The translations under genes and the position numbers were made by a program. A stretch of 56,551 nt of DNA, counting the filler, from Stramenopiles sp. TOSAG23-2 (Eukaryota), in assembly GCA_900128395.1 (NCBI GenBank). It is 5 parts of 5 records of this genome, joined end to end, with 100 filler letters (N's around TTAATTAATTAA, not from the genome) between each part and the next. Parts side by side here need not be neighbours in the genome. Positions count along the whole stretch, not along the records: positions 1 to 11,263 come from LT649949.1; 4 more parts are not named here. One strand, written 5' to 3'. Position 1 is the first letter of the stretch. Each line of letters begins with the position of its first letter. Positions 1 through 55,100 of the stretch are shown one piece after another. The notes under the pieces were generated by a model. That model did no database searches, was not told the DNA's origin, and worked only from the letters and a program-made list of their open reading frames with translations.

Positions 1-439
1 GTTGTTCTTACTGAAATTGGCAAAAAAAGTGTATATATATGTATCTATTGTTTTTACCTCCTTAAAAACACCTTATTCAGTGCTATAGTCATGTAGAATA
101 GGTACTCTTCAAAAGCAAACAGGGACACAGCATCATGCTGCAAAAAAATAAGAATTAGAATGCAAAAAAATGGAGTGATGTGCTGATGTGCCACCACACA
201 GACACAGAGGAGAGTGCGAGTTAGAGTGTGTGGTGCGACACAAAAAAAGAACACAGAAGATATATGAAAAAAGATATGAAATTTCAATACGACACAAGAG
301 TCCAACGCGACGCAGACTAATATATATACAACAATACCGAATCAATCCATCATCAACGCCACGTTAACCAATATATATATACATAACAACAATAAAAAAG
401 CAAAAATCACCCCAACCTAAAAAAAAATATATAAACAAT

Positions 440-1417
440 ATGAATTATCGCAACATTATCATCATTACAATTTGTGCTTATTTATATGCTGGTCCAGCAT
501 TTGAAGTCACAACTATTAAAGGTAAAACTGCATTAGTCACAGGTGGATCGCAAGGTTTAGGATTAGCAATTGCGAAAGATTTAGCAAAAGAAGGTGTTTC
601 AAAATTAGCTATATGTGCACGCAATATTGAAAAGGTAAATAAAGCAAAAGAAGCTTTGGCAATAGAATTTCCAAATGTAAAAGTATATGGCTTTCGTTGT
701 GATATTTCAGATAAATCGTCCCGTAATTTATTAGTAAAAGAATTATTTTCTGCTTTTAATAATAAACTTGATATTTTAATCAACAATGCAGGTGTTGAAA
801 AATGTTACCATTACGAAAAATATACAGAGGAAGATATTGAGATGCAAATGCAAATCAATAACAATGGTGCTGCGCAATTAACAAGGGCATTTATGCCTCA
901 AATGATTGAACGAAAAACGGGACATATTGTGATGATGTCTTCCATTTTAGGTCAAATACCTTGTGCATATTGTGCCATTTATTCCGCTACACGACATTTT
1001 ACATATGGATTAGCCATGTCTTTAAGAGGGGAAATGGCACATCGTCAAACTGGCGTAACAGTGCATTCAATACATCCAGGATTTATTGAAAATACTGGCG
1101 TATATAAAAACGTTCAAGATGATGTGAAAAAAGATACATCAGCACAAGAATTTCATATTCATTGGTTATTTGGTACAGGCGGACAAGATGTTGATACAGC
1201 AATTGCAGTATCAAAAATGATTAAAACAAATCAACCAGAAGTAATCATTAATACCCCACCATTGCGACCGACAATTGTATTATCGAAAATATTTCCACGA
1301 TTTTTCGATTATTTAGTTTATTATTGGCCTGGAACAGTTGATCCATTAGCAGATGCTATTAAATTAAGAGTGAATGGAAAGTTAAAAAGAGATACATTAG
1401 CAGTTTCTTCTGTTTAA
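440..1417 (+). CDS. Short-chain dehydrogenase/reductase (classical SDR) with N-terminal hydrophobic anchor
   Basis: TGGSQGLG Rossmann motif, DILINNAG, MMSS catalytic Ser, YSATR (YxxxK variant), IHPGFI; N-terminal IIIITICAYLY segment. Confidence 0.92.
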   Translation: MNYRNIIIITICAYLYAGPAFEVTTIKGKTALVTGGSQGLGLAIAKDLAKEGVSKLAICARNIEKVNKAKEALAIEFPNVKVYGFRCDISDKSSRNLLVKELFSAFNNKLDILINNAGVEKCYHYEKYTEEDIEMQMQINNNGAAQLTRAFMPQMIERKTGHIVMMSSILGQIPCAYCAIYSATRHFTYGLAMSLRGEMAHRQTGVTVHSIHPGFIENTGVYKNVQDDVKKDTSAQEFHIHWLFGTGGQDVDTAIAVSKMIKTNQPEVIINTPPLRPTIVLSKIFPRFFDYLVYYWPGTVDPLADAIKLRVNGKLKRDTLAVSSV

Positions 1418-1730
1418 AAAAAAAAAAAAAAAATGTGATTATGATATGATATATAAAATGTTCTCTTACTCATATCGATATATTATATAAATTTATGTGA
1501 TTATGATATATGATATGATATAATATCAAGATACAAATTTTTAAAAAAAGTGTACGCGTCATTTTTAAAAAGTGGCTTTTATCGCGTTTATAGAACATGA
1601 TACTTCTCGTATCGGAGTGTGCATTTTCAAAAGTGAGGTAGAGAAGGAGAGAAGGAAAACAAAAGGGTAAAAAGTGTGCGTGTGTACGTGTGTATATCTC
1701 CTCTTGATTTTAAATTTTATATTTTTAATA

Positions 1731-2105
1731 GAGCCACCTCCGCTAATACCGTCGCCAAATAAGGTTTTCTCTAAAATCGCTTAATTTTTACACAAAATGC
1801 CGCCGGAAAATTAGTGAATCGTTTCTAATTGTAAAAAAAATCATCAGAGATCATGTACACACAGTGTGTACAACATCTAGTCACTTTTTCTTTTCGATTT
1901 GAATCCATTTACGAATTTTCCGGTACCAATATGTGTATAAATTTAGCATCATTTAATCAACGTCAAAATCTTCGAAAAAATGGATATGGGAGGTCTTAAA
2001 ATTAGGGTTAAAAGTTTATTTTACTGCTATTCGCATACTAATACACAATATTGTAGAGAAATAATTTATTTTCGTTTTAGGCGACACTTTTAGCGGACTT
2101 GGCTC
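1731..2105. mobile_element. Putative MITE (non-autonomous DNA transposon, possibly PIF/Harbinger-Tourist-like), 375 bp
   Basis: Terminal inverted repeats 1731-1756 (GAGCCACCTCCGCTAATACCGTCGCC) and 2080-2105 (reverse complement GAGCCAAGTCCGCTAAAAGTGTCGCC), 21/26 identical; ATA on both flanks (1728-1730, 2106-2108); no long ORF inside. Confidence 0.7.
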
Positions 2106-2557
2106 ATAAAAATTATAAAAAAATAACACATTATAATGTGGAGAAGTAATTTTTATAATTTTTTAAAAGATATCATACGTGTTTTTATTATATATATATA
2201 ATTATACGAGTACCACATAATATATACACACACGTAAAAATTACGAACTTTGTAAAAAAGAATATTTTTTCTTTTAATTCCTCGTACGCGCGATATATGA
2301 TACGTATCATACTTTAACTTTTTTTTTTCACTTTCTCTACATTGACTTTTGTCTTATTTTAAATACATGTCCTCATTTTACTTTTTTCATGTTTCTTTTT
2401 TTTTTTACATTTTTTTTGTTTACAATATATTTTTTAATATTATTTCTTTACACATGTTAAAACGATTAATATGCAGTTTGAATGCATCCAGTATGTTTTG
2501 AACATACTTTTAAAACCGAATTACGCTACCCCTGACCCTAACCTAGCTTTCGTTTAA

Positions 2558-2663
2558 ACAAACACAGTGCAAGATTCAAACTCCACAAACACGGTGCAGG
2601 ATTTTCGCAGGTAACTACAAACATGGTGCAGGATTCAAACTCCACAAACACGGTGCAGGATTA
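2558..2663 (-). repeat. Four-copy AATCCTGCACCGTGTTTGT array directly after/overlapping the EF-hand gene stop codon
   Basis: Plus-strand units acaaacacggtgcaggatt at 2558, 2585, 2617, 2644 (0-2 mismatches); the last unit overlaps the TAA at 2663-2661. Confidence 0.9.
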
Positions 2664-5600
2664 TGGATCTACCATCTCACAAAATGTTGGATAATGGCAT
2701 TGATCTGTTTTTCCTGGAATAATCATACCAAATGCCTTTAACAAGCAATCTTGCTCTTCTTTTAAAGGTGGTAATAAATTTAAAAATCCTAATACGCATG
2801 TAAATTGATTTTTCGTAACTGTTCCCCTATTTGTTTTATCGTAATTTTGAAATGCTTGTTTTACATTCATTCTACGTTCACGTACGATACGTTTTATGTT
2901 CAGTAAAATGGATTGTAATGCATTTTGATTTACACCAGTTGCATCAACGCTAAAACGCCATTTTTTCCACGTTGGCAACCCTTTCGTTGGACTCTGTTCC
3001 AAATGAACGCGTTGTTCAATATCCAAGAAAAATTTATTCCAATACACTTCATCATCATGCTCTGCACTTTTGTATTTTTCACATAATGCTTGTTTCTCTT
3101 GGTATGTTAAACGAAAGTTTGTCCCTAATGCAACATCAAGTGCGCGATGCATTTTACCCATGGAAATCGCACCACTACGAAGTTGATCGTAATCTTTAAA
3201 GAAAACATCTAATGGTATACCACGACTTTTCACATGTTCACGTATGCGTATCATGACATCATCTAAATCTACAGGGGCACTTTTACTTTCCACTTTTGAT
3301 GCTGCGGAAATACTGTAATTTTTCTTTGTTGTTCTTTCTGGTGGATCAATGACATCGCAAAATTTCTTGTAATTCACATCGTATAATTCTTTCGATTGCC
3401 CAAGGGAACGTACTGCAAATTCACTTTTTGCAATTAATGGCATGATATCGGTAAATCGTGTAGTATTAAATACTAAGGATAAACATCGAACGAAGCTATA
3501 TGTATGTATGTGTGTGTGTGTGTGTATTTGTATATGTGTGTGTTAGTTTTGTTGTTTTTATTGTTTTTATACATGGTGTGTGTTTGTGTATATATATATA
3601 TATATAAGTAGTGTGGAAATGTATGTGTGTGTGTATGAATGTAAAGGTTGTCGTATAGTTAAATACGCTAACACTCCACAAACACGGTGCAGGATTACCA
3701 CCCCACAAACACGGTGCAGGATTATCACACGGTGCAGGATTACTCACCGATCTTGTGGTAATAATCCACGTTTATGCTTATCCAATTTTTGAAAGGACAT
3801 GCGTGTTAATATATTTGCCCTTGTTACCGTCTCCTTCATATCTCGTAAATATTCATTCAATTCATACCGTTCCTCTTCAGTCAATGATGTTTCATCCGTA
3901 TAACCAGCATCGATAACTTTTTGCGTTGCGCCCATGACATCCATCGTTGGATTTCTTTCTAAATTTGCAACGGTGAACACAGATTCTAAATCAGCAACAA
4001 ATTGTCTCCAATCAATCGTTGGTTGAAAGGATTTCCACGTATCCTCATCCAATGACCCAGTCGCTAAATAAATTGGTTCTAACATTTGCAATTGTGCTGC
4101 TGATAAATCTGCAGCTTGGCACATTTCTTTAATACCTTGGCGAAATTTATATATATTAATTTTACCAGTTTGCAATGGATCGCTATCACGGAAAAATTCC
4201 TTCGTGCGCAATCGTCTACCACGTACAAATTGACGAATTCTCCACATCACTTGATCTGCATTGCTGCCTTTTGCTCTCCATGTATCGCCAACATATGGTG
4301 TCTCTGACATTGGCACACCGCCGCCGCCATCATCTTTCTTTCCCTTATTATTATCCATTCGTACACTGCCAACTGCGCCGACTTCTTTTAAAAATGGTCG
4401 GTAACGTACCAACGTAGTGCCATATCCACCGCCACTTTGGTATCCATATTTTTTAATAATGCATTCTAATACTTCATCTTCCTCCGGGCGTATTTTACGT
4501 AAAGACAATACATCTTTTAAAAATGGTCGGTAACGTACCAACGTAGTGCCATATCCACCGCCACTTTGGTATCCATATTTTTTAATAATGCATTCTAATA
4601 CTTCATCTTCCTCCGGGCGTATTTTACGTAAAGACAATACACGTTCAAATTGATCACGTGTCACTGCACCCCTTGAAGTGCGATCGAAATCTCTGAATAC
4701 ATCTTGTAAGGACATGCGTGATTGATTTACAATCTGTTTTAAATTTCTTAAACCGATACGTAACAGTTCTTCTTCCCCATCAGTTAATTGTGGCAATTGT
4801 ACACGTGGTGCATGTGCAATTCTCCATGGTGCAGAATCCAATCCTTTTTGCGGGCTACGTTCTAAATTTTTAGCAGTAAATGCTAAATCAATGAAGGAAC
4901 ACATCGAACGGTAATCAACGAAATCATCCGGTCCTGGTATGGCATATTTATCAGCAAGGCTATCCATCTCCGCTTCCGTAAATTCACTTGGTAGACACAT
5001 ATACATGCATGTTTTGAATTTTGGTCGTTTAATAACACCTTTTCTCATTTTATCGAAATCATCGAAAAACATACGTAAGCGTATTTTCCGTTCCGATACG
5101 ATACGTATTAAACGTTGCAAGATTAATTCTCCATCATTTGGTCTCCAACTTGCAGATAAAATTCCCGTATTTGCACCACCACCAGCAGTTGTTGGGTTCA
5201 ACAACTTTGCACTTGCATTTCGCTGTGCAATTTTTTGCTGTTCAATAGCTTCCCGTTCTTTTGGTGTACTTTCCGCATCACGACAAAATGCTTTGTAACA
5301 GATACTTTCACCATCGGAATAACTTTTTGCTAATAGTTCACTTTCCACCATATTAATATCTTTTGGCAATGCCGTTTGCAATGCACGGTGAAAGCGACTT
5401 TCACTTACAAATCCTGTGTTATTTTTATCAAAATCTCGAAAGAAGATTTTTAAAATAACACCACGATCACGTTGTGCTTTGGAAACATTTACCATAATAC
5501 CACGTAATTCAGCGCGTTCCGTGGCAGTTAAAGGCAATCCATATGGTCTTGGATTTGCACCAGCCAACGCTAAACGTACTTGTTTCGTTGGGGAAAGTTC

Positions 5601-5861
5601 CAATCCTTTGACACTGTAGACCATATTGACTTGATCACAGAACGTTGCATAATCAACGTTCCCATCACCCGCATCGAACATAGCTTCCAATGCATCTAAT
5701 TGTGCACGATTTAATTGAACCTTTGCAATAGATAAAGCACGTTCAAAACGATTTTTATTAATATATTTATGGTTTAATTGGTCAAAATCACGAAAATAAT
5801 CATCTAAACGAAATTTATTACGTAATGCTTGCTTTTGTACTTCCGCAACAACGTCTGCCAT
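2661..5861 (-). CDS. Multi-EF-hand protein, CFAP115/EFCAB6-like flagellar type; two exons join(5861..3748, 3495..2661)
   Basis: Repeated F-x-D-F-D-x-x-x-x-G EF-hand pairs in both ORFs; removing the GTGAGT...ATATAG intron fuses them in frame (QD-R-FVRCLSLVFNTTRFTDI-MPLIAK). Subfamily is from recalled pattern only. Confidence 0.85.
3496..3747 (-). other. 252-nt spliceosomal intron carrying CCTGCACCGTGT repeats (Introner-like candidate)
   Basis: Donor GTGAGT 3747-3742, acceptor TAG ending 3496, phase 2, restores the reading frame; three core repeats then (CA)/(TA) microsatellite. Confidence 0.9.
4384..4641. repeat. Exact 129-nt in-frame tandem duplication in the EF-hand CDS
   Basis: 4384-4512 identical to 4513-4641; 43 codons repeated. 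Confidence 0.95.
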
Positions 5862-6184
5862 GGTTGTGTAATAATAGTAATAATATAATTTCTTGTGTGT
5901 TATATATATATATATATATATATGTTATTATATCTTGTTTGATGGATTCTTCTTCTTGTTTCTGTGTATGGTATAATATTTATTTCGTATATATGTTTTT
6001 GTATGTGATATATATTTTATAAATTATTGCGTGTGTTTTTTGTAATGGTATTTCCTTGTTAATCGATCGATTTGCCGCCTCGGATGTAATAACAAAACGC
6101 CTAGAGAGAGAGATAATGGAATGAGGTAAAAACGGATAAGATATGAGATATGATATGGAATATAGGATAGAAATAGTATTATAA

Positions 6185-6545
6185 TAGGTAAAAACATTGA
6201 TAAATAGGAGGAGATAGAATAGTGAAATAACAAGTTAAGTACAGATGGAAACAGGGGGAAATCGTTTGATATGGGAATAGTAGGTAAAAACATAGATAAA
6301 TAGGAGGAGATAGAATAGTGAAATTAGATATTAAGTAATGGGAATAGTAGGTAAAAACATTGATAAATAGGAGGAGATAGAATATAAATAGTGAAATAAC
6401 AAGTTAAGTATCGATTTAATGATGGAAATAGGGGGAAATCGTTTGAAAATCGTTTGAGAATACGAAATAACAAAAGTTAAGTATCGATTTTATGATGGAA
6501 ATAGGGGAAAATCGTTTGAGAATACGAAATGACACAAGTTAAGTA
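6185..6545. repeat. Composite purine-rich minisatellite in a divergent intergenic region
   Basis: TAGGTAAAAACATWGATAAATAGGAGGAGATAGAATA at 6185, 6281, 6348; GATGGAAAYAGGGGRAAATCGTTTGA three times; AAGTTAAGTA four times. Confidence 0.9.
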
Positions 6546-6811
6546 CAACAACAAAAAAAAGGAGGAATCTGTGGCACCCTTTGCATTTTAAAAAAGAGGG
6601 CCGTGGTTTTCCTCCGATCCTACTCGATAGCAGGTAAATAGTATGCATTTAAGGTGAAATTTCCAATATTCCATCCAAAATATATAGACAATTTGTATAT
6701 ATAAAAATAACAAACACACACAAACGTTTGATAACATAGATATATATACATCACATTGTTAATATATACATATCCATTCTCTCACTCTGTGCGTGTGTTC
6801 TATAAATATTA

Positions 6812-9800
6812 ATGATGAAAAGAAAGAAAATGGTTTGTCATCGTAATAATAATAATACAAATGATTCTTCCAATCATCATATGAAAAGGAAACAACGCCA
6901 TTATTATTATTATAATAATAATAATAATAATAATAATCAACAACTTTTGTATATTCTTTCTATTGTTGCAATTATATTTGCTTTATTTATATCCCCAACA
7001 TATTCACAAGTTGTGGAAGAAGAGAAACGACCACAACCACCTGCAGAAGAAGTAACTGCAAGAAATGCGGATACTAGCTCATATACAAATATCTTGAAAC
7101 AATTGGAACAACCAACGGGTGCTGCTGCTGCTACGACAAAAGCATCGACTGATGGAGTGAAGGAAGAGAAACAAATTCCAAATACAAAACCAGATATTGC
7201 ATCTCCTGATAATAATATGTTAACATATGAACATAATAAATTTGACTATGTCAAGTTACAAAAGATTCTTCACGATAAAACAGCAGATTTTCAAATGAAA
7301 TTTCTACCAGGGCGTGTGAATGTGAAATTAGGTAAAGTTACAATAGATGCATTAAAAGGTCGTCGTAGTGAAGATATTGGTGCAACTGGAGAAATTAACA
7401 ACATTTTTGACCAAAATAGTAATAGTAAAAATAATAAACAAACAAACGGTAATGGTATTAGTAGTACGAGCCGTGTGTTTGGTATAGATGTAAATGAGAA
7501 ACATGTTCATCATTTATTTAAAGGTGCGATCACCGGTATGGAACAACAACAACAACAAGACGTAGCAAATTTGGCAACTGGGCCAATGGATGCAACTGCG
7601 TTGGAATCCGTAGCGTCTGAATCGAAATTACCACAAGTTGTTGCTTTAAAGGAACAAGTAGAAGATGCAAAATTTGAACTTGCAAAAATACCGATAGATG
7701 ATTTAGAAAATCCATCGTATGTAGGGGCAAAGAAAAAATACGATGATGCGTTAGGACGATTACAAGCATCATTGATGCCCACCGGACCATCATCGTCATC
7801 ATCATCCTTTGCACAACCACCAACTGGTGCTACTGGCAATACCAATTATATAAATTTCGATGCACCAACTGGTAGTGTGAATAATAAGAATAATGAAATG
7901 ATACATAACTCTGCTACGTATCGTGTGTTAAAACCTTCTATCTTGCCATTTGGACCAACTGGTACTCGCAATGGTGAAGGTGCGTTACTCGATGCAACTG
8001 GGTTATTAATAGCTAAAAAACGACATGTTCAATTGTTGAAAGACATTGAAATACTTAAAGATGAATCGGAAATGTTGAAAAAATCAAAACGTATGAACGA
8101 AGTAAAAGTAAGACAATTGCAAATGGAAGAATTAAAACAAAAAGTAGTCAACGTGGAAAAAATGATTCAAGATGCTACTGGTGGTGCAACTGGTGGTACG
8201 TCTACTGGTGGTGGAAATGATGATGATTCGATGTATTTTACGTCAACAAGTACTGGTAATAGTAACGGCAAGAAAAAGAAGAAGAGGGAGGAGGAGAAGA
8301 AAAAGAAGAAGATACCTTTTGATGCAACAGGTACTGAGGCTACGACGACGACGACGTTGACTCCAACAACAACCTGTGATGAATGCAAATGTGATAAAGA
8401 AACGGATCAAGTGCAATATGAAGAAGTTCATGGGCATAAATATTGCTATTGCACATCTGCAAATTTTATCACGAAACGTAGACGTTGTTTAGGGCCAATT
8501 CCAAGGAATAGGCCAACTGCTTGCGAGGCATGTGTCTGTGCAGCAGATGAACAACCATTTGGACAAGTTCATACGTTTAAAACATTTGGTGGTACAAATG
8601 CATGTTTATGCGCTGGTAAAGTATCAGTTGGTCGTAGTAAAATATGTAGTGGTGAATTACCAACGGCATATGAAAAGACGATGGATTGTTCATTAGCAAA
8701 ATGCAGTGGTGGTGGTGGTGATCCGGGCCAACGTATTGTATACCAAGCATTAGGCGATGTCAACCGTTACTATTGCATCGATGTACGTACGAATAATCCA
8801 ATTACGGAGCCAAAACATTGTAAAGGTTTTATCAATGCGAAAAAATTATGTACTACATGTACGTGCAATCCAAATGGACGCGCACCCGAACTGGTATATG
8901 AACGAATGAATGGTAATAACATTTGCTATTGCAAAGGTGCAGATGGAAATACAATTAGTGAAGTGTGCCATGGGCCATTACCAAATGGAAACGTCGCACC
9001 ATCTAATATTGCACCGCGTACGGAATCCAATAATTTAATGGCAACGATGTATGGCAATAAAAAATATGTACATTATCAAAAACATTTATCAATGGAAAGC
9101 AAATCTGCAATACAACGTTTAAGGCAAGCATTGAATATTTTAATCGATAACAATGCCTCGTTCCAAGAAATGTTAAATGTCATGAAAAGTTTATCGCACC
9201 AAGTGAAGGCGGATAAAAATTCAGCGGATTTAATCCATTCCTTAGATGCAAAAGGTTGCGGGCATTCCATTGCGGAATATAGTGCAGAAGTGAAACAAGC
9301 GTTGGAACGTAAGCAACAATGCATTGCAGCCGTGAAAGAACGTGAGGTGGAAAGCAATTCTGCAAAGAAAGAGTTTATTAAATTAGTGGATATGGATAAA
9401 TTTGGAAAAGGTAAAATTGCTGATATTAAACGTAGAGAAAAAGTATTAAGTAAAATTGAACAAGCGGAGATGGCATCTGAATTTGCAACGAAAGCATCGG
9501 AAAAGATCTATAAAACTACTATGAATGCATTGATGGGAAATGTGCAAGAAGGGTTGAAAAATAGTGATCCATCCATCGATGAAGATTTAAAAACAAAACC
9601 AAAACCATCCACAACATCAGCAACGAAAGTCGTGCAACAACAACAAGAACCATCGTCTTTTTTAGAGAAAAAAGAAAATATCGTAGAATCAGATATTCTT
9701 ATCAAACAAGAATCGCAAACTGTTGATAAAGTATTAAATTCAATTGCAAAGAGGAAGATACGTAGGAGGAGGCATAATAATAATATGAGAAGTAGTAGTA

Positions 9801-11061
9801 GTAATGGTGGCAAAACAAATAATAATAAGTATGCAGCAGCAGAGGCAGCATCAAAATCGTTACCAAAAGATCCATCAAAAGACAAAGCGTCTACATTGCA
9901 AATACATAAATTTCCAAGGCATACATATAATAACGTCGTCGATAAATGGCATAAAGAAATCAAGGCACATGATAATTTAGAAGAATTAAGTAAATTAGCC
10001 ATGGGTATTCATTCCACCGGGGAGAAAGTGGAAAAAACGATGGAATTGCCTAATGCTGCGGATCAAATGAAAAATTTGAAATTAACGTTGAAAGATGAGA
10101 AAAAAATGGTGCAAACGAATATCTTAGCAAATGATATGAAACGTGGTAATTACGATCGTTTACGCGTGCGAAATGTCCAAGCGAAAGCGGCATTGGCAAC
10201 GGCGGAGCAAAAATTAAACGATGCAAACGTCATGTTGCGTAATGTGAAAGAATTTAGCAATACCATTTTAAGCAGCTGTAATTTAAAATCAAAGCGTTAC
10301 AATGAAGAAAATAAAGAACGTGTGAAAACCATACGTTTAACGGATGATTTAATCGTAGCAATTGAAGGTGCTATTAATGGTGGTGGTGAAAGTGATTTCC
10401 CGAATGTACGTTTAACGGATGATTTAATCGTAGCAATTGAAGGTGCTATTAATGGTGGTGGTGAAAGTGATTTCCCGAATGAATTGTTGTCCGTGGAAAA
10501 AGAACTGCAAAGTCATGAAGGTCGTAAAAATTACACAAAGAAATTCAATGGTTTAGATTTAGCAAAAGATGATTCTACTAAAAAATATTCTGCCATACAA
10601 CCAGGCAATCAATGTACATACATTGTAAAAGCTGGCGATCATTTACAATCCATTCAACAAAAATTTAACATTGCAAATGAAAAAGATCTTAGAAATGCAA
10701 ATATGAATTTAGAAAATCTGTTTGATACGCAGCATCTGAAAATCGTGTATCCACCTGTCGGTACATACGTTGTCGTTCCGCGTAAATTTATTATTACAAA
10801 GAAATTGAAAAAAATGTGTTCAAAAATACAACGTGCTGTAGAAAATACAACCGTGCCTGTGAACCATTTCGTTTTGGAAGATGATGAAGATATGCAAGAT
10901 CAAACGAGAAACCATACGACGTTGCGTGAAGGTGACGAGAAACATATGGAACAAAATCCATTTTGCCATTCAACAATTATCCACGAACACAACCAATTGA
11001 ATAAATTGTTCGTTTTGGAAGATGATGAAGATATGCAAGATCAAACGAGAAACCATACGAC
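6812..11061 (+). CDS. Large secreted/membrane-anchored protein with four Cys-rich repeats, coiled coils and a LysM domain; 3' end incomplete
   Basis: Hydrophobic LLYILSIVAIIFALFISPTYS segment; CxxCxC...C-x-C...C-x-G-x-x-P repeats 8375-8983; YIVKAGDHLQSIQQKFNI...LRNAN LysM signature at about 10619-10781; ORF ends at a GTGAGT donor. Confidence 0.8.
10332..10481. repeat. Exact 75-nt in-frame tandem duplication
   Basis: 10332-10406 identical to 10407-10481 (RLTDDLIVAIEGAINGGGESDFPN twice). Confidence 0.95.
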
Positions 11062-11063
11062 GT
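10868..11063. repeat. Exact 55-nt direct repeat, 141-nt offset, in frame
   Basis: 10868-10922 identical to 11009-11063 (FVLEDDEDMQDQTRNHTT twice). Confidence 0.95.
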
Positions 11064-11183
11064 GAGTACCTTACCTGCACCGTGTTGGCGTATTCGCCTT
11101 ACCTGCACCGTGTTCCTTACCTGTTCCTTACCTGTTCCTTACCTGCACCGTGTTGGCGTATTCAACTATACGACGACAGCCTC

Positions 11184-11228
<45 letters not shown>

Positions 11229-11263
11229 TATATATATATACATATAACGGAAAAAGAAACAAA
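11062..11263 (+). other. 5' part of an intron carrying CCTGCACCGTGTT repeats, homologous to intron 3496-3747
   Basis: GTGAGT at 11062; core at 11074, 11102, 11142; tail 11150-11174 is 23/25 identical to the tail in the other intron; then (CA)n; no clear acceptor before the contig end. Confidence 0.75.
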
Positions 11264-11363
11264 NNNNNNNNNNNNNNNNNNNNNNNNNNNNNNNNNNNNN
11301 NNNNNNNTTAATTAATTAANNNNNNNNNNNNNNNNNNNNNNNNNNNNNNNNNNNNNNNNNNNN
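11264..11363. other. Artificial contig linker
   Basis: N44 + TTAATTAATTAA (stops in all six frames) + N44. Confidence 0.98.
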
Positions 11364-13312: not shown

Positions 13313-14758
13313 CTATGCCATCCAACCAGGTTTTCTAAAATTTGCACCTGTATATATTGCATCACTTCCTAATTCCTCTTCGATTCTTAACAATTGGTTA
13401 TATTTAGCTGTTCTTTCTCCACGGCATGGTGCACCAGTTTTAATTTGCCCAGTACATAAACCTACAGCTAAATCAGCAATATATGCATCTTCTGTTTCTC
13501 CACTACGATGACTTGTCATTACACCCCATCCATTTTGCTTTGACATTTTCACCGCATTGATCGATTCTGTAATGGAGCCAATTTGATTTACTTTCAAAAG
13601 CAAGCAATTTGCTGCTCCTTCTTTTACAGCTTGCTCGATTTTAGTTGGGTTTGTCACGGTTAAATCATCCCCAACAACTTGGCATTCCACTCCAACTGCA
13701 GAGCAAAATTTGGACCAATTGCTCCAGTCATCTTGATCAAATGGATCTTCCACGGTGACAAATGGATATTCTTGAATTAATTTTTGGTAAAAGGCAATCA
13801 TTTCATCACCAGTTAACAAAGCTGATGTGTCTTTATCTGCTCCTGTTGTTTTAAAATCCAAATCATATGCATCTTCACCATCAACTTTAAATTCAGACGC
13901 AGCGACATCTAATCCAAGCGTTACTTCTTTCTCATATCCAGCTCTTTGAATACCTTCCATTAATAAATCAACACCTTGTTGAACATCAATTGGAGGAGCA
14001 AAGCCACCTTCATCTCCTATTAACGTGGCATCACCACCATATTTTTCTTTAATAACAGATTTTAAACTATGGAACACTTCGCATCCTATTACCATAGCCT
14101 CTTTGAAGGAATTGGCACCCGTTGGTATGACGAAAAATTCTTGAAATGCTAATTTATTACCTGCATGTTCTCCCCCATTAATTACATTGAAACATGGAGT
14201 TGGTAATTCATTTGCATTTGGATTTCCTGCTAAATCTGCATAATGTTTGAACAATGGTACGCCTTTTGCTGATGCACCTGCTTTTGAAATTGCCAAGGAA
14301 GCGCCAAGAATTGCATTTGCGCCTAGGTTTGTTTTGTTTGGTGTGCCATCTAAATCAAGCATCAATTGATCAAGTCCACTTTGATCAGTCGGGTCTTTCC
14401 CAAGAAGAGCTGGACCAAGTGTTGCGTTCACAGCTCCAACTGCTTGCAATACACCTTTTCCCATGTACCGTTTTCCACCATCACGTATTTCACAAGCTTC
14501 GTATATACCTGTGGAAGCGCCAGATGGTACACTTGCCCTATGTAATCGGTTATCATCTGTAGTGATATCAACTTCAACAGTTGGATTTCCACGTGAATCA
14601 ATAATTTCACGAGCGTGTACTTTTGTGATAGTACTAAATGCTGCACGTGACGATTTTTCCCAAGGAGTAGATGCAGATGCATATTGTGATGCTTGTACGA
14701 CATTTGTAATGTTCTTGATTTGTTTGGTGAACAATGGTGTGATTAATTTGCTATTCAT
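13313..14758 (-). CDS. ENO: Enolase with N-terminal presequence (probably mitochondrial)
   Basis: [63 protein letters not shown]; likely start MNSKLITP at 14758 rather than the track's 14962. Confidence 0.97.
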
Positions 14759-14827
14759 TGTGTTAAAATGTGTTGTTTCAGTAGTTGATAAGTAATAATT
14801 AATAATATCTCTCTTTCCACACTCGAC

Positions 14828-17689
14828 GTGACTAACATTAAAAAGAAACGTAAGAGAAAGCGTGGGCGTGATGAGGATAATAACAGACATGATGATAATG
14901 ATAATGAAGAAAGTGGGAATGGCAGAGCTGGAGATAGGAAGTCTGCTAAAAAACGTCGGCATATAAGTGCTCCAAAATCATCGAGTAAATTACAACGGGA
15001 TCTCCAAGTTGCAACTCCCGTTTCAAGCGATAACGATGACAATGTTGATATAAGCAAGAAAACAAAAATTAATATAAAAAATACGAAGAAGGAAAAAAAT
15101 ATTTTGGAATCATGCCTATCGAAATCAAATGATGAAGGTCCATTGACTTCCATTTTATCAACATCGGCTTCTTCTGTAAAAAGTAAAGGTATAAATGAAA
15201 ATCGATCGAATGGTTTTCATGCCCATCAAAAGAATAATTCATCGAGCCATGATCGACGTGTTAGTTTTGGTAAATTTAACAGTGGTTTCGGTAGTAGCGA
15301 TTTAAAGTCATCTCCAAGTGGTGGAAGCGCTTTATTTGATGATACCATGAATACGACATCAGACACAAACGGGGGCGTCTTTGGTAATTCTCCTACTTCG
15401 AACACACGATTAGAGTTTGATGAAAAACGTCGTGTTGGCTACAATAACAAAGGTCTTAATGTTTTAAAATCATCAATATCATCTGTATCGCCATCGAAAC
15501 CTGAATTTCATAAATCCCCGGAAGCAACATATGCTTTATGGGGTAATGATCCTACAAAACATAATTTTGACAAGCCATTTAATAAATACGAAGCATCGAA
15601 AAAGAAAAATAACTATCTCAATTTTCATTTACGTAATAATAATAATAGCAGTCCTTATAATAATTATATGAACGCCAATCAACGATATCACCGTCAGCAA
15701 TTATACCAACAAGAACAGCAGCAGCAACAACAACAATATTATTATTCTCATCAACATGATGGTTATTATGAGGCTATGCCGAGCCACTATAATCACACAA
15801 TTTATGAAGAAAGAAATGACAATAATATTTCGCAGCAAGAAAGTCGGGATTTTTTAGCATATCAAGAATTACTGCGTCAAAAACAAAAAACAGGACAGCG
15901 ACCATTGTATCAAACAATGCGTTCCCCATCAGGCGGAGTAATTAATATTGATGAAGAGTATGATCCTCTATATCGCTTGAATCTAATTAATAGTATTGCA
16001 AATCGAAATAGTTATACCAATACTAGCACTCCGCACTCTTCAGTGCCACATCATGAGAGGGGAACTATGGCTTGGGAATTAGAACGTGAAGAGGCAGATC
16101 GTAAACGTATTGAACAGTTGAGAGTTGCAAAATCTAGTCTTCGATCTTTACGAGAGAAAGCGAAAGAGCATAATAGCAATGATAATATTAGTATTAGGTT
16201 TGGTAATAATAACCTTTTACCTGAAATTAAGATAAGCCCTCGCAAAAATGTTTCTAATTTGAATCAAGATACAGATGTAGGCGAAAGTTATTTGCATGGA
16301 GGTAATCAAAATGATAATAGTGCTAATAATATTAATGGCGCAAAAACAACAAAAGTCGATCTTCCAACAAGTAGTGCGCCGATATCATCAAATTTATCTC
16401 ACAAAGAATTATCCAAGTCTTTATTTGCTTTTACTAAAGTTAATATACCTGGTGTAACAGATGGCAGTACTCGTTTTGGATCAAATAGTAGCGTAACATC
16501 GTCTAGAACAGATGTTAATAACTCTAATAAGCATATTTCGTATGGAAATTTTGATGCATACATGGATAATACGGTGCAGGAAGAAGTAGAAAGTACAGAC
16601 AATGATACCAAAATAAAGTTACCAAGCAATAGCGTATCACTAAATAAAGAATTGGAAACACCATTATTTAGTTTCGCAACTACATCCACAAATTGCAGCA
16701 GTAAGGATCAATCTTTTATGGTGGAAAGCAATGTCAATAACTCTAATAAGCATATTTCGTATGGAAATTTTGATGCATATTTTCCACCTGGAGGAGATGA
16801 AATTAATGACGCAATAGAAAGCGAGGAAGAAGAAGGTGAAGATCACGAGGAGGACACTATCAATTCTTCTAGACCATCATTCGAACCCAGAATTGAGCCT
16901 GGTGATCTTGCCCGTGTTGAATTAGCATGGAATCGCAATCTTGATGAAAGAGATGTGGTGATTGATAGTACCAAACATGGAAAAGATCACAGAGACAGGG
17001 ATGTTATATATGAGAGTGAGGTAACACGGAAAGACTACAAATCGTTAGTTCCAGGTTCATGGCTGAGTGATGGTATTATAAATCCGTATATTAAAGTTTT
17101 GAGAAATATATGCCGTATAAATAAGCTGAAAATCCATTGGTGGCAAACATCGTTTTTTATAAAGGTATATAATAACGGCGATTTTGCTTACAATGAAGTG
17201 AAAAGATGGGGCAGAAGGGTTATTGGTAAGAACATTTTTGAAATGGACAAAATGTTTATACCTGTGCATAAAGATGGATCGCATTGGATATTAATCGAAG
17301 CATGTATGAAAAGTAAAGAAATTAAATTTTATGATTCGATGTTAGGCGCGTTAGATGAAAAATATGCATTCAAGATGATGACTACGATTGCCCAGTATAT
17401 CAATAAAGAAGGTGAGCAAAAACAAATTGAAGGTTTGAATGCAATGGATTGGAAAATGTCAATAGTTAAAAATACACCTCAACAACGCAATGGTTATGAT
17501 TGTGGTGTTTTTATGTTGCAAAATGGACGTGCGTTGATGGGAATTATTGATAATGTAAATGGTATACAATTTAATCAAGGTAATATTGATTACTACAGGT
17601 ACTTGATTGGTGCGACATTGATTGATCCGGAGAAATATGCACCTAAAAGTGTTGAACATGCTGAGGAGGAAATGACAATGCAAGTGTAA
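14828..17689 (+). CDS. Ulp1/SENP-family SUMO protease (peptidase C48) with long disordered N-terminus; start uncertain
   Basis: [23 protein letters not shown] (His), FYDS (Asp), [12 protein letters not shown] (Gln/Cys). Confidence 0.92.
16512..16779. repeat. 49-nt in-frame direct repeat (219-nt offset) in the Ulp1 CDS
   Basis: 16512-16560 vs 16731-16779, 48/49 identical ([16 protein letters not shown] twice). Confidence 0.9.
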
Positions 17690-22610: not shown

Positions 22611-22710
22611 NNNNNNNNNNNNNNNNNNNNNNNNNNNNNNNNNNNNNNNNNNNNTTAATTAATTAANNNNNNNNNNNNNNNNNNNNNNNNNNNNNNNNNN
22701 NNNNNNNNNN
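22611..22710. other. Artificial contig linker
   Basis: N44-TTAATTAATTAA-N44. Confidence 0.98.
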
Positions 22711-33935: not shown

Positions 33936-34035
33936 NNNNNNNNNNNNNNNNNNNNNNNNNNNNNNNNNNNNNNNNNNNNTTAATTAATTAANNNNNNNNN
34001 NNNNNNNNNNNNNNNNNNNNNNNNNNNNNNNNNNN
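33936..34035. other. Artificial contig linker
   Basis: N44-TTAATTAATTAA-N44. Confidence 0.98.
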
Positions 34036-37368: not shown

Positions 37369-39265
37369 TTACCCTTGTACAGCAGATAAAGCAGTCTTAG
37401 TAAAGTCCATGATGTTCGGAGACGTTTGAAACGATATCACATTTTGTGCTAATGATTCATGGTTACAATTGTCATGGAACCTAAAAATATAATGGTTAGT
37501 AATTGTAATAATTTAAATGATTTTAATGATTTACTTACCACATAGGGGTTACCGGTGAAGACCACGGCGCACGGATGACACTTTTTTCAATTCCATTAAA
37601 CATCAGCGTGTTATGAATTTGTCCAATGCCACTCTGCACATCTTCAGGAGTATGGTTGTAATAACCACCCCAAGTGCAAGGAGTGCAGAAATAACCCAAT
37701 CCAGTTGGAGCGTTGACGCAGACAGATCCATATTTTAAATCAGCTATAGCCTTTTCACATGCCTCTTTTGATTCTTTTTGCAAATCAGGTGGAATGAAAA
37801 TTGAACAAGAGAGTGTTCCCCATACTTTTTCATTACAGAATTTGGTTGCTTTTTCAAGGAAATCAGCACCACTTGTGGAATCAATCGTAATTTCTGTCAT
37901 TAAACATGTCCAAGCTTCGTTGCAGCAGGTATGTTCACAACATTTTTCATTTGAAGAAACATCTTCGATGATAGTCCAAGGAAGAGCTGAATTTTCATTA
38001 TTTGGTGATTCCCAATTTTTTTTTTCAGCAGCGCCATAAACTTGTTTAAACTTGTTTAACCTGTCCCCAGCGCCAGGATAATAGGCACTCCTTGTTTGAC
38101 AGGCATTTAAATTTTTACGCAAAGCATTTAAAAACTCACCACGTTGCGGCCAATTCTTCGCAACAATAATATTTTGAGCAGCTAAACAATTGAAATGTCC
38201 ATTATGTACACACATAGACACAACTGCTCTTGCATGAAATTCAATACTTTCAGCAGACCATTTTCCAGGTGAAATGATATATGGAGTTGCCGCACCCAAT
38301 TCAGCCATAAATGGTTTGCTAATATTTTTTTTCCCCGATTTTTTGTTACGTGCAATAACATCTCTCATGGATTCATTTGTTTTTTCCCGTGGTCCCCACA
38401 TAATTGCATCATATGTTTTATCTGAACCTGTCATATGTATTCCATCAATACCATTATGATGAATTAAAGCTTGTGCAGTTTGAACACCGCCACAGCAAAT
38501 TTGTAAAATACCAAGATCAACTAATGGTTGAAATGCTTTAATCATATGTGGTTGTAAATAATCGTTTACTGGGTTTAATTTGCAAATCAACGAGACACCT
38601 TCTGAAAAGACAAGATGTGCAATATCACAACCAACAACAGTAGCTTGATTACCTGCTCCTAAACAAAGCCAGGTTGCTTCTTCATGATCCATCGGATTAT
38701 TTATTGTTGGCTCTTCATGAAACCAAAGCTCCCCGGCATAACCACCAAATAACATATGTTGGTACAAACCTCTTGGAAATACATTGGCAATTTTACGCCC
38801 ATCAGGACCATCAACAATAGAATTTGCTTGTTTTTTCAAACCACTTGCGCCAGATTTTGCAATGATCTTCAACGACTCACCTAATTCACGACAAGTTGCT
38901 ATTGTTGCACTCCAAGCAATGGTTTCTTCCCCACGCCCTGTCTCGTATGAACCTTTAAATTTAATGCTTTCAGTAACCATATCATTTGTTGCCTTGTTAC
39001 AAGTTTGAACACATTTAAACGCAAGTTCAGAACGTTCACTTGCAGACATTGCTTTTAATTTTGCAGCACCTTCTTTTGCTGTAGCAACCATGGCTTCTAT
39101 TTCATCATCTGTTGGAACATATGCTGGAGTCATATTTGTTTCCTTCGTTGCTGGAACTCTATTTTTAATACCTTTGCCGTTTATACCACCTCTTCCAAGC
39201 AAATATGATAGTCCACCAACTAGTGGTGAGGATACAATACCTAACGTTGATTGTACTGAATTCAT
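37369..39265 (-). CDS. Aldehyde dehydrogenase superfamily protein; two exons join(39265..37539, 37480..37369)
   Basis: LGAGN, KLNPVN, HMTGSDKT, AELGAATP, HNGHFNCLAAQ (catalytic Cys), LKYGSVCVN; splicing adds WFHDNCNHESLAQ...AVQG*. Confidence 0.9.
37481..37538 (-). other. 58-nt canonical U2 intron
   Basis: GTAAGT donor, TACTAAC branch point, TTTTTAG acceptor, in-frame join TG|G. Confidence 0.93.
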
Positions 39266-45256: not shown

Positions 45257-45356
45257 NNNNNNNNNNNNNNNNNNNNNNNNNNNNNNNNNNNNNNNNNNNN
45301 TTAATTAATTAANNNNNNNNNNNNNNNNNNNNNNNNNNNNNNNNNNNNNNNNNNNN
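45257..45356. other. Artificial contig linker
   Basis: N44-TTAATTAATTAA-N44. Confidence 0.98.
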
Positions 45357-52158: not shown

Positions 52159-55100
52159 TCAATCGACCATGGATTTGATTCGATTTCTAACAATATTAAT
52201 AAAACTCTCAATATATAATTGAGGATTTTGTACTCCTTGCGATCCTGTTTTAAACACAAATGCAATATGTTTCGTTGCTTTCGTAAAACTACATTCAACC
52301 ATATATAAACGTGTGGTATTTCCAGATTTAATTTTTTGTTCTGCATAAAAGTAGAATTTCGAAACACCTTCTTTTTCTCCACTTGCCATGCAATGGATAT
52401 GATCTTTCATCAATAAACGTTCTAACTCACCATCAGGCAATGAAGTTTTTAATCTACTACCCCATAATTTCGTAATATCCATTTGTTGCCATCTTCTTTC
52501 ATATTCTTCTGGCTCCAATGTAGGATTCGATATAAAGTTCAAAAGTGGATATTCTACAGGTTTCTTTTGTTGTTGTAGCTGTGGCATATTATTGTTGCTA
52601 CTTCCAGCCACACTATTTGCTGTCTTTCCAAAATTATTTACATTATTACCAAATGCATTTGCACCTCCACCAGTATTGTTGCTACTTCCAGCCACACTAT
52701 TTGCTGTCTTTCCAAAATTATTTACATTATTACCAAATGCATTTGCACCTCCACCAGTTGTAGCCGTGCTTCTAAATCCAAATAACTTCTGAACCTGATT
52801 ATTGTTATTGTTATTATTGTTATTATCTGTATTATCGTACGTAAAAGAATACCAATGCCAATTTTTTAATATGAAATTTGCGTCCAGCCCCGCTTTTTCA
52901 GCGATGGCAGCGTTCTCTACATAGGATACGTTCGTAACTTTTGATTGCCCAGCATTCATGGTACCTGCATCTATAACAGTTTTGACAATGTATTCTTGGT
53001 ACCCTTGAATACCACCACCAAAACCACCACCAAAACCAAAACCACGTTGAACAATTTTAGCATCATTCAAATAACTTCTGAACTTTTGTGAAAAGCCGGT
53101 AATTTTAACAATTCTACCGCCATCGTGGGGCTGATACACCACACCGCGTGGCACATTAGTTTTAGTACGTGAAAATCCACATTCAGATATTTTTTGGTGT
53201 AATATATACATTTCCAACCTTGCTTCAGCACCTGCTGGTAAATCTTTTACCCCTTTTGCGCTGACTGCGTCTTGAAATTTTATAGTTCCAAGATTTTTTA
53301 CACCTACCATTGTCGCCTGATCAAATATTGCACCATTCACTTTAGCATTACCTAAGTTTACATTACTGAGATTTGCCCCGGTAAAGTTCGAATTACTTAT
53401 ATCAGCATTTGAAAAATCTGCATCTTGTAGAGACCTATTAGGTCCTGAGAAATCAGTACCAACTAAACTTGCCTTTGTAAAATTTGCACGTGTCAAATTT
53501 GCATTTTTAAACTTTGTAAGAAAACTTGTCTTTGCGGAAGTGAAATTTGCGCTTGTTAAATTTGCGTTTTCCAAATTGACATTTATTAAACCGCATTTTG
53601 TAAAATCACCTCCAACTAACTCTAGATCAGAGAAATCAATTCCAGATAAATCGCATTTTTTAAAAATGGCACCTTTCAACGTTGTATTTTTAAAAATGGC
53701 ATCCTTCATCTTAGCAGTAGTAAAGTTTGCTTCACTTAAATTTCCCCCAGAGAAATTAACTGATCGTAAATCGGCATTTGTAAAGTTAACTTTCGACAAA
53801 TTCATGCCAGCCATATCATAACCTTTCAAATCACAATTTTGAAGATTTGCACTTATTAATATCATCTTTTGAAACTTTAAATTTTTCAGTATTGCACTTG
53901 ATAAATTTGCCTCACTAAAATCAACATCAGTAACGTTTGCATCAGTAAAATTACTTTCAACTAAATTTGCTTTAACAAATTTTGTCCTAGTCAAATTTGC
54001 TTTCATAAATTTAACACTTTTTCCATTTAAATTACTAAAATCACAATCACTACATTCACTATCAACAAACAAACCTGATTCAACTTCAGCACTTGTAAAA
54101 TTTGAATTTTGAAGTTCTGCTTTTGTAAAATCAATAATGTCATCTTTCGAGCATATTTTACTAAAATTACACCGAATACATTTACTATTATCAAACACAG
54201 AACCTGACAAGTCAGCAGAAATAAAGACGGAATCTTGCAAAGTTGATTTTGTAAAATCTAACTCCTTACCAGTGCATCTAGAGAAAGATGTTTTTGAACA
54301 CTGTATTTCAGCAAAGTGACCTTCAGATATTTCGCTAGAAACAAATGAACATCTAATTAACTTCGACTTTGTAAAATCAATTGCATAACTCTTTGATTTA
54401 TCAAAATCAATTGATGTGCATTGACTCTCAGTAAAGTCTCCATCTTCAAGTACTGATTCAATGAATTTTGTTTTCTTTAAATTGCATTTAACAAAATTAA
54501 TGCTTTTTCCATTTACCTTACTAAAATCACTATCGGCAATTTCACTTTCTGTAAAAATGGCACCTTCTGCCAATGTGTTTCTAAAAAGCCCATGGCTTAT
54601 TTTACTGCATTTAAAAGATGCGAAAGAAATATTCGTAATACTTTGACTAAAATTTGAATAATTTAAGCAAGCACCATCAACATGAGCTCGATAAAAACTA
54701 GATCCTCGAAAATCAATTTCTGTTAAATCCAATTTTGACATATTCATACCAGACATGTTTCTTTGCCCATTTAAAAGTTGCATTACATCCACGACACTAA
54801 GACGTTTGTAAGCGGTTTTACATAATTTTACAAGTTCAAGTAAATTATAGCGATTGCCTTCGCGTTCAAGCCATTGTAATTGCGAGACATCTTTCAATAT
54901 AGGTAATTGGGATGGGTCTCGTAGATATTCGGCTATTAATTCAAAATAACGTGGATTACCATTAATAATTAGCATATTTTTTTCAGGGCAGTCAGATTTA
55001 TCTTGCCAAATTTCTTGATGCTGACGTAAGGCATCAAAAAAGATACTACGTTCAAATTTTACTAAACAACGCCATGGAAGTTTATAACTTCTACCACTTA

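Follow-up and report, generated by a model that had tools for sequence, protein, structure and literature searches.

Why does a tandem repeat begin exactly at the stop codon of a protein-coding gene? The question arises in the 56.5-kb stretch of DNA that was analysed here (the window), where the minus strand at the end of a gene for an EF-hand-repeat protein reads ...GTA GAT CCA TAA|TCCTGCACCGTGTTTGTGGAG... and the stop TAA (2663-2661) is at the same time the opening triplet of TAATCCTGCACCGTGTTTGTGGAG... The original prediction, that the repeat starts at the stop of GAT CCA TAA and comprises four units, was borne out on both points, with TAA as the first triplet and four cores counted. We propose that this array (W-A, 2519..2663, minus strand) probably belongs to a lineage-specific, introner-like family of repetitive introns in an uncultured marine stramenopile, of which it would be the 5' module in unspliced form; the family itself probably derives from a non-autonomous DNA transposon.

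The window consists of five contigs of ~11.2 kb each, chained via runs of N with a TTAATTAATTAA linker (11264-11363, 22611-22710, 33936-34035 and 45257-45356), and the first of these (1-11263) carries all three arrays of the repeat. With a GC of about 0.3-0.37 the window is AT-rich, and it is dense in genes and poor in introns; the DNA is of seawater origin, with at least half of the sampled words found in the 20 runs listed (13 studies; 6 of the 20 are RNA libraries). Positions 1-11260 were compared with Logan contigs from three poly(A) metatranscriptomes (X8, X14 and X20) and one metagenome (X3). The scan for introns in the window was crude, demanding a branch-point-like motif and, on either side, an ORF of 70 codons or more, and can miss introns; a conventional 66-nt intron at 37537, which is free of the array, escaped it.

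W-A is built of four ~27-nt units and a partial TTACCTGCG unit (2606-2614), followed by a second module, module II (TTTGTTTAAACGAAAGCTAGGTTAGGGTCAGGGGTAGCGTAATT). The CCTGCACCGTGTT cores of the four units lie at 2647-2659 (0 mismatches), 2620-2632 (1 mismatch), 2588-2600 (0 mismatches) and 2561-2573 (2 mismatches), all on the minus strand like the partial unit, and Tandem Repeats Finder delimited the repeat at 2558-2662 with a period of 27, 3.7 copies and 73% matches. The motif TGTTTGTGG is present in this array, which terminates ...GGTTAGGGTCAGGGGTAGCGTAATT at 2519; it is flanked TAA...TAA, although the right-hand TAA may be module II's own sequence. With up to 2 mismatches allowed, the core was found 11 times in the whole window against 0.35 expected (maximum of 100 shuffles, 2). 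Ten of the 11 matches fall in three arrays, at 2519-2663 (minus strand), 3650-3747 (minus strand) and 11062-11174 (plus strand), each oriented in the sense of the preceding ORF. The 11th (16568-16580, 1 mismatch) is solitary and within an ORF.

The arrays differ in how they end. GCGTATTYAACTATACGAC is common to the two intronic arrays (2 matches in the window against 0.03 expected), whereas W-A ends in a different module, GTAGCGTAATT; the predicted echo of the intron tails in the tail of W-A comes down to GCGTA, the only element in common. Module II was found again in tandem in the metagenome loci L012/L030 and within the intron of L021. The TTAGGG in W-A, which had been called telomere-like, occurs in the window at chance frequency (12 against 13.6 expected) with a single copy inside module II, and neither tandem TTAGGG units nor an excess of TTAGGG was found there. 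No inverted arms or terminal inverted repeats were found at the three window copies.

Some features of the assembly might suggest that W-A is an artefact, that a copy of the intron array was put in the wrong place, or that the likeness is a matter of chance. The window was chained from five contigs through N linkers, it holds exact tandem duplicates of 129 nt and 75 nt that are absent from all four public runs compared, and an odd 55-nt repeat stands before the third array. Independent data exclude such a reading, to which we assign almost no probability. The whole array, with both flanks and an unchanged stop-to-array junction, is found in an independent assembly (L033; 99.4% identity across 3591 columns). 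The junction is also crossed by an RNA contig from X8 and a DNA contig from X3, each covering 2633-3486, and a further X3 contig (record 12) covers 2109-2541 on the far side of W-A. The spacers of W-A (GGAGTTTGAATCC) are unlike those of the copy in intron 1, and the excess of core matches over expectation speaks against chance. The suspicion that W-A could be a mis-assembled intron copy can accordingly be set aside. For annotation of the window, the duplicated stretches of the assembly matter in another way, as they inflate two proteins.

The host gene runs on the minus strand from an ATG at 5861-5859. Exon 1 (3748..5861) holds the 129-nt duplicate (4384-4512) that is missing from the public runs, and is separated from exon 2 (2664..3495, 277 codons) by intron 1 (3496..3747, 252 nt, phase 2), which was also rebuilt independently. 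Intron 1 reads, in order, GTGAGT, a 3-unit array, the tail GTTAGCGTATTTAACTATACGAC, a CA/TA-rich stretch, an ACTAAC branch point and TATAG; its array and tail (tail I) make up the second copy in the window (W-B, 3650..3747, minus strand; cores at 3726-3738, 3708-3720 and 3681-3693). The intron is spliced out in all three RNA runs, with one contig each from X8, X14 and X20 joining 3748 to the next exon; nine letters between the aligned pieces at this joint were taken as 3495-3487, inside a masked repeat zone.

The fate of W-A in RNA is different. The 2936-nt X8 contig contains exon 1, the spliced junction, exon 2, the stop codon and 28 nt of the array, ending at 2633, and the choice between 3'UTR and spliced sequence falls to the 3'UTR, as RNA contigs read through the stop into the array. 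RNA depth in the three runs was 8.8, 19.4 and 28.4 in the bin 2257-2632, compared with 12.8, 46.9 and 57 in the adjacent coding bin and 0, 0 and 1.2 in the bin 1881-2256, values that come from contigs rather than reads and may over W-A partly stem from other family copies; no poly(A) site showed up in these data. Minor RNA contigs connect the array at 2605 to unique sequence at 2512 (X14, with 27 other letters that amount to one further unit) and at 2514 (X20). Because the ends of these joints do not have GT..AG, they are better read as a length allele than as a splice, and the part concerned (2513..2604, minus strand), one unit plus module II, would be polymorphic in length, missing or replaced in the minor contigs. 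The RNA cover of 2257-2518 follows from the bin depth together with these two joints. W-A is real and forms part of the mRNA; the populations sampled are fixed for it, its length varies, and it is neither an intron nor a mis-assembled intron copy. It constitutes the first ~145 nt of the 3'UTR, to judge from the junction, which the RNA demonstrates, and from its full extent, which is probable.

The array spares the protein. For exon 2, 641 homologues were retrieved; among the 150 listed, most have 800-1000 residues with 4-6 such modules, and in many the alignment comes within 0-13 residues of the homologue's own C-terminus. The final residues of ...FCEMVDP are conserved, VDP or IDP recurring in the 24 homologue C-termini inspected, two of which (P0150 and P0247) end exactly there while others continue for 3-8 residues. 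Only two close relatives of exon 2 were found, one identical and the other 90% identical with a shifted C-terminal frame, and neither yielded an empty site. W-A cuts no domain and leaves the conserved C-terminus of the EF-hand-repeat protein untouched; any loss would be limited to a few unconserved residues.

The third copy (W-C, 11062..11263, plus strand) is the 5' part of a second family intron, in a Cys-rich gene, and is cut off at the contig end where the N linker begins (11264). It shows GTGAGT, an array (cores at 11074, 11102 and 11142, with the CCTTACCTG variant), tail I, (CA)n and (TA)n. Directly in front of it lies an exact second copy (11009..11063, plus strand) of the 55 nt at 10868-10922. 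The junction 11008|11009 is absent from RNA contigs, and an X3 DNA contig stops at 10922, exactly where the two forms of the 55-nt repeat diverge; this pattern is compatible with a presence/absence polymorphism of the intron and also with a real duplication. The three window arrays were predicted to be sense-oriented and to abut the end of coding sequence: all three are indeed sense, but at W-C the RNA contigs depart from the window 54 nt before the donor.

To place W-A in its family, metagenome data were scanned with a pattern of two exact units 5-30 nt apart, which misses single or decayed units. The scan returned 38 loci, 31 of which are AT-rich like the window (GC 0.30-0.41). The other seven (L001, L003, L014, L016, L020, L032 and L034) were discarded as unrelated tandem repeats because they are GC-rich (0.51-0.73), and L010 (GC 0.41), which has no tail, was excluded; L007, L013 and L029 overlap L006, L012 and L028. 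The 27 remaining loci (GC 0.30-0.39) together with the first contig hold 44 listed arrays, which after merging via shared flanks gave 23 classified sites. Left outside these classes were L002, a short contig with a stop 17 nt upstream or else a weak GTATTT donor; further downstream arrays in the same 3' regions of L012, L024 and L036; L027, where the flanking genes diverge; and the inverted arms of L017/L035 and L022. Inverted unit arrays occur at L017/L035, L022 and L027 only.

The 23 sites fall into three groups. The first (n = 11) has a sense array whose first full core is 9-37 nt behind a GTGAGT, GTAAGT, GTATGT or GTACGT donor, and comprises W-B (with L009, L031 and L033), W-C, L015, L005/L028a, L011, L017, L021, L022, L025, L028b/L038a and L038b. 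The second (n = 8) has no donor and a sense array that comes after the stop codon of a long ORF (from 229 to over 660 codons): W-A (with L033), L018, L036, L004, L024/L026, L012+, L037 and L012-/L030. In these, the first full core lies 4, 6, 13, 15, 18, 28, 29 or 37 nt away, counted from where the stop begins, with the longer gaps partly occupied by partial units. The third group (n = 4: L006a, L006b/L019, L008 and L023) has an antisense array in an intron, 1-27 nt before ACTAAC. The number of units differs between orthologues (8 vs 5, 7 vs 9, 2 vs 7).

The hosts, whether of family introns or of stop-adjacent arrays, are ordinary genes. The intron-bearing genes encode a kinesin, a protein kinase, LRR, WD40, lactonase and myotubularin proteins, and the intron of the last (L021) divides one Pfam domain cleanly, with PF06602 profile positions 17-190 on one side and 186-351 on the other. 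The ORFs of the second group have complete Pfam domains well inside them and include an FMO-like oxidoreductase, a methyltransferase, a NIPA transporter, a 2OG-Fe(II) oxygenase and an EF-hand protein; since they belong to convergent pairs, L004 and both L012 genes represent true gene ends. Domains of transposases, reverse transcriptases or integrases were not found in the 40 flanking ORFs scanned.

The family unit is the 26-27-nt CCTGCACCGTGT (TTGTGGAG), arranged as a tandem array with a GCGTA-type tail. In full-length members the order is a GTNAGT hexamer, the array, the tail, a CA/TA-rich stretch, the ACTAAC branch point and a YAG acceptor. Seven independent family introns were rebuilt, flanked upstream by open frames of 162-725 codons and downstream by ones of 192-609; in all seven a GT donor is combined with an ACTAAC branch point and a YAG acceptor, with 20-80 nt from ACTAAC to YAG, where RNA evidence of splicing comes from intron 1 and the other loci are read from sequence. 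The alignable stretch shared by intron 1, W-C and the introns of L011, L021 and L038b takes in the array, tail I and CATACATYTCCACACTACTTATATATA; these introns reside in unrelated hosts, namely the EF-hand-repeat, Cys-rich and myotubularin (L021) genes and two unnamed ones (L011 and L038). Because the alignment extends past the array via tail I and CATACATYTCCACACTACTTATATATA, most of the intron is family sequence. Copies adjacent to stops are shorter, with the array and tail followed by unique sequence; L024a departs from the family alignment directly after ...TATACGACAACCTC. In the 3' flanks, TACGA, TCGTA or CGTAA was seen in 8 of 17, and TACTC was the sole enriched 5-mer.

The ends of the introns give a hint of how they arose. 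Three of the seven rebuilt introns (L028a, L025 and L038a) open with GTAC and are each followed by an exon that opens with GTAC too, which places the tetranucleotide at both junctions; L011 has GTAA/GTAC, and the other three, including intron 1, have no such duplicate. GTAC/GTAC looks like a 4-bp target-site duplication, in which the upstream copy would supply the GT of the GTACGT donor. The element also has an intrinsic polarity in both orientations, judging by what its array adjoins: the array's own 5' end abuts the donor hexamer (GTGAGT, GTAAGT, GTATGT or GTACGT) at the 11 sense sites, and at the 4 antisense ones it abuts GTTAGT, which is ACTAAC reverse-complemented. In L006a the far end has GTAAGT, read on the gene strand, at the position that ACTAAC occupies in sense copies on their own strand.

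The placement of W-A has parallels. In eight independent genes a sense array starts at most 37 nt behind the stop, against no antisense case, and all eight non-intronic first arrays lie within this distance. As a null, 2.4% of oriented positions in the same sequences fall within the 0-40 nt that follow the stop of an ORF of 100 codons or more, and 8 of 24 sites gives a binomial P of 5.7e-8, calculated before L019 was merged with L006b, the count now being 8 of 23 with a small change expected. L012 offers two convergent genes, each with its own sense array at its own stop. A sense copy directly behind the end of an ORF is shown by these genes to be a recurrent placement, with W-A as one case. 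The expectation of a non-random strand and position beyond the window was upheld in so far as sense arrays cluster behind stops, but the four intronic antisense sites show that the repeat is not always sense. A bias arising from the stop-codon content of the unit was considered and dropped, because sense and antisense strands differ little (3.59 vs 2.45 stop triplets per 100 nt; stop-free frames 51/129 vs 66/129). Neutral insertion followed by selection, the weak point of our preferred reading below, does not by itself predict that all eight non-intronic copies should be sense and lie so close to a stop.

Such regularity could be explained if the array were a cis-acting RNA element that flags where coding sequence ends, its GU-rich sequence (GUGUUUGUGG) offering a platform to an RNA-binding protein. 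Such a protein would aid donor recognition in introns and act on termination, stability or 3'-end formation behind stops. The short distances of sense arrays from donors (11 sites) and stops (8 sites), the excess over the random expectation, the lack of antisense arrays behind stops and the paired arrays of the L012 genes would all fit. The unit also contains TGTTTGT, comparable to the TGTTTGTT that lies 4 nt downstream of ~96% of poly(A) sites in Blastocystis, likewise a stramenopile, where a GU-rich TGTTTGT core stands just behind the ORF end (PMC4159000). As far as the accessible part of that report describes it, the Blastocystis motif is single and sits exactly 4 nt behind the cleavage site in ~96% of genes, whereas TGTTTGT in our family is embedded in a longer repeated unit, present at 1 of 18 gene ends in the window and read through by transcripts. 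W-A as a poly(A) downstream element of the Blastocystis type was rejected on the same grounds, the RNA contigs passing through its first unit.

The broader RNA-element reading meets similar difficulties, and we consider it unlikely. The array is carried by 2 of the 3 introns recognised in the window, RNA depth goes on past the array of W-A, unit number and modules vary between strains, and at four intronic sites the array is antisense. The RNA folds of W-A and of intron 1 were no better than those of shuffled sequences (z = 0.79 and -0.77), and Rfam gave no match at E <= 1 across 2200-3800 on both strands. A general exon-boundary or 3'-processing signal at the RNA level, one of the two possibilities originally put forward, is unsupported because only one of the window's 18 gene ends has the array; the array-free intron at 37537, the read-through, the variable units and the four antisense sites point the same way. 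We think that the array is not needed for 3'-end formation.

A stop inside the first triplet of the repeat also brings to mind a dead terminal intron, that is, a family intron inserted in or just after the last codons, which lost its donor and in whose first triplet translation now stops. One locus fits this: the ORF of L012-/L030 ends GTA CGA TAA|AATCC (GTACGATAAAATCC), resembling the live donors GTACGTGTAAAATCC (L028a) and GTACGTTATTATAATCC (L038a), and the stop overlaps the leader of the first unit at four of the eight stop-adjacent sites. At the remaining four, the gene's own stop is clearly upstream (8-26 nt) of the first unit or partial unit. The reading does not fit the W-A locus, where no trace of a donor precedes TAATCC, no sense ORF follows the array, and the CA-rich part, branch point and acceptor of full-length members are missing; the final VDP, moreover, is conserved in homologues and is the exact terminus of 2 of the 24 inspected. 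For W-A we judge a dead terminal intron to be very unlikely.

A more far-reaching possibility, distinctly unlikely in our estimate, is an element that seeks the ends of ORFs, its insertion or its action at the RNA level being coupled to the first non-coding nucleotides behind coding sequence. One and the same element could then create a new exon-intron boundary, where a GT is supplied, or a new start of the 3'UTR, and with its GTNAGT/ACTNAC ends one or two point changes would be enough for it to work as an intron, whichever way round it lies. If this were true, the targeting or selection of introners would read where coding sequence ends and not merely the accessibility of DNA.

The introner-like family remains our preferred explanation of W-A, and we propose the following sequence of steps. 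The family is probably mobile and would spread, or have spread, as DNA, as the GTAC flanks suggest. Copies would insert at the DNA level into accessible DNA at the edge of coding regions, and purifying selection would leave only those that are spliced out or do not interrupt an ORF, so that copies in coding sequence survive only if spliced and copies outside it survive unspliced. Full-length members would be removed by the spliceosome as ordinary introns, intron 1 being the demonstrated case, and W-A, which has no donor, is transcribed and retained in the mRNA as the start of the 3'UTR. The tight placement at stops may reflect accessible-edge insertion and selection acting jointly. The other original possibility, that an insertion can persist only as an intron or after a stop codon, agrees best with the evidence, given a multi-copy family, splicing of intron 1 in three of three runs, a stop copy in the 3'UTR and an intact VDP.

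The core properties of introners, similar introns at non-homologous sites in unrelated genes and splicing by ordinary signals, are both found in this family. Introner elements of Micromonas and Aureococcus were reportedly described by Huff et al. in 2016. Introners are documented in Micromonas pusilla and Aureococcus anophagefferens, and 548 families of them have been surveyed across eukaryotes (PMC9860276, PMC4815162, PMC11282704). In the introner scheme the donor can be supplied by a target-site duplication (PMC9860276, PMC11282704), insertion occurs into nucleosome linkers (PMC9860276), and in Micromonas 25 of 3171 complete D-IE1 copies are intergenic (PMC9860276, PMC4815162, PMC11282704). 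Compared with what the accessible text of these papers describes, our family is alike in consisting of sequence-similar spliceosomal introns at unrelated positions in unrelated genes of a marine protist, in having a subset with a short duplicate at both junctions that would give the donor GT while the element brings the acceptor, and in having a minority of copies outside introns and copies in both orientations. By the same comparison it is unlike them in that a 26-27-nt unit, repeated in tandem to a variable extent, forms its 5' end, terminal inverted repeats are not seen in most copies, and the non-intronic copies are 5' fragments at most 37 nt from a stop and always sense.

Other repetitive introns offer partial likenesses, again within the accessible portions of the sources. 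Fungal introner-like elements are repetitive, have no terminal inverted repeats or target-site duplications and are tied to transcribed sense DNA, which has led to RNA-based (reverse-splicing) models (PMC9860276, PMC4815162). They share with our family the repetitive introns and the bias to sense DNA, but they are described as short and structured, whereas our family folds no better than shuffles and a subset of it has the target-site-duplication-like GTAC flanks that indicate a DNA-level mechanism. The invasive intronic elements of Amoebophrya and the dinoflagellate introners are also repeated intronic elements of marine protists and have been interpreted as mobile (PMC7789003, bioRxiv 10.1101/2020.10.14.339549). 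The tandem array behind the donor and the sense fragments hugging stops are the unusual parts of our family; no description of unspliced sense copies directly behind stops was found in the accessible parts of the literature consulted.

When introns are gained in bursts, introners are currently the best explanation, and marine protists supply the majority of known cases. The present family adds an example from an uncultured stramenopile abundant enough to be followed in public ocean metagenomes and metatranscriptomes, together with an architecture in which a fast-evolving tandem array stands directly behind the donor, and with unspliced sense copies that start right after stop codons. Should the placement reflect insertion targeting or a role at the RNA level, it would show how such elements find, or survive at, the ends of exons; should it reflect selection alone in a very compact genome, it would provide a clean natural map of tolerated insertions. 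For annotation, the unit marks introns and gene ends in this lineage.

A few minor observations concern the sequences themselves and their source. By eye, CTTACCTG may resemble the 5' end of U1 snRNA and GTTTGAATCCTGC a tRNA T-arm, likenesses on which no conclusion here is built. The window also contains an enolase gene (13313-14977, minus strand), whose top named relatives are ochrophyte stramenopiles.

The array module, built of tandem ~27-nt units, seems to be invertible inside a common intron scaffold, because introns carrying it in antisense and in sense orientation match in their 3' parts. In the minus-strand EF-hand gene of metagenome locus L006 (1850-3600), an antisense array adjoins the branch point in each of two introns. 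Visual comparison matches the 3' parts of both introns (TGTCACATAYGGCTTCGCTTCGCTCGCTA) to the 3' end of the L025 intron, in which the array is in sense. Judged by their near-identical upstream flank and donor, the array-bearing introns L017:1330-1498 and L035:430-570 appear to be orthologues within a single gene. Inverted unit arrays form a long hairpin in the L017 intron, whereas the L035 intron has lost most of the left arm. At L024:1900-2330, ~105 nt of the host gene 3' end, stop included, recurs past the inserted array and tail, differing by a few substitutions. This repeat is a very long flanking duplicate, and its downstream copy was confirmed by a further metagenome locus, L026. Three introns were recognised in the window, and one of these, a conventional short intron read by eye on the minus strand (GTAAGT...TACTAAC...TTTTAG, ~66 nt long, at 37537), has no array; therefore the array family does not include every intron of the organism.

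The third array of the window (11062-11174, plus strand) is preceded by an exact 55-nt repeat with copies at 10868-10922 and 11009-11063. Beyond the repeat, one copy runs on as exon and the other enters the GTGAGT intron, a structure that could represent a polymorphism for intron presence or absence, a genuine duplicate of an exon fragment within the intron, or two alleles joined end to end by the assembler. Contigs from all three public RNA runs depart from the window at 11008, continuing GTTACGTATGG..., and a contig from the public DNA run (X3) ends at 10922, the exact divergence point of the two copies.

Exact tandem duplicates were found inside ORFs at three sites, of 129 nt (4384-4512), 75 nt (10332-10406) and 84 nt (52590-52757). 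The first two look like assembly artefacts, since contigs from all four public runs, the DNA run included, skip both; they add 43 and 25 extra residues, respectively, to two proteins.

Population variation was observed around the stop-codon array (2519-2663, minus strand). A plus-strand C>T at 2678, five codons ahead of the stop, is a common population variant (RNA runs X14 and X20, DNA run X3 and L033, an independent assembly of the same gene) and converts GAG (E) to AAG (K), changing ...FCEMVDP to ...FCKMVDP. In the spacer between two convergent genes downstream of the array, 387 nt (1721-2109) are swapped for 15 other letters in an X3 DNA contig, an indel polymorphism. Among the 3' flanks of 17 window gene ends, TACGA, TCGTA or CGTAA motifs lie within 120 nt behind eight stops, often between convergent genes. 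These motifs contain CpG, are partly palindromic (e.g., TACGAACGTTCGTA) and may serve as a 3'-end signal of the organism.
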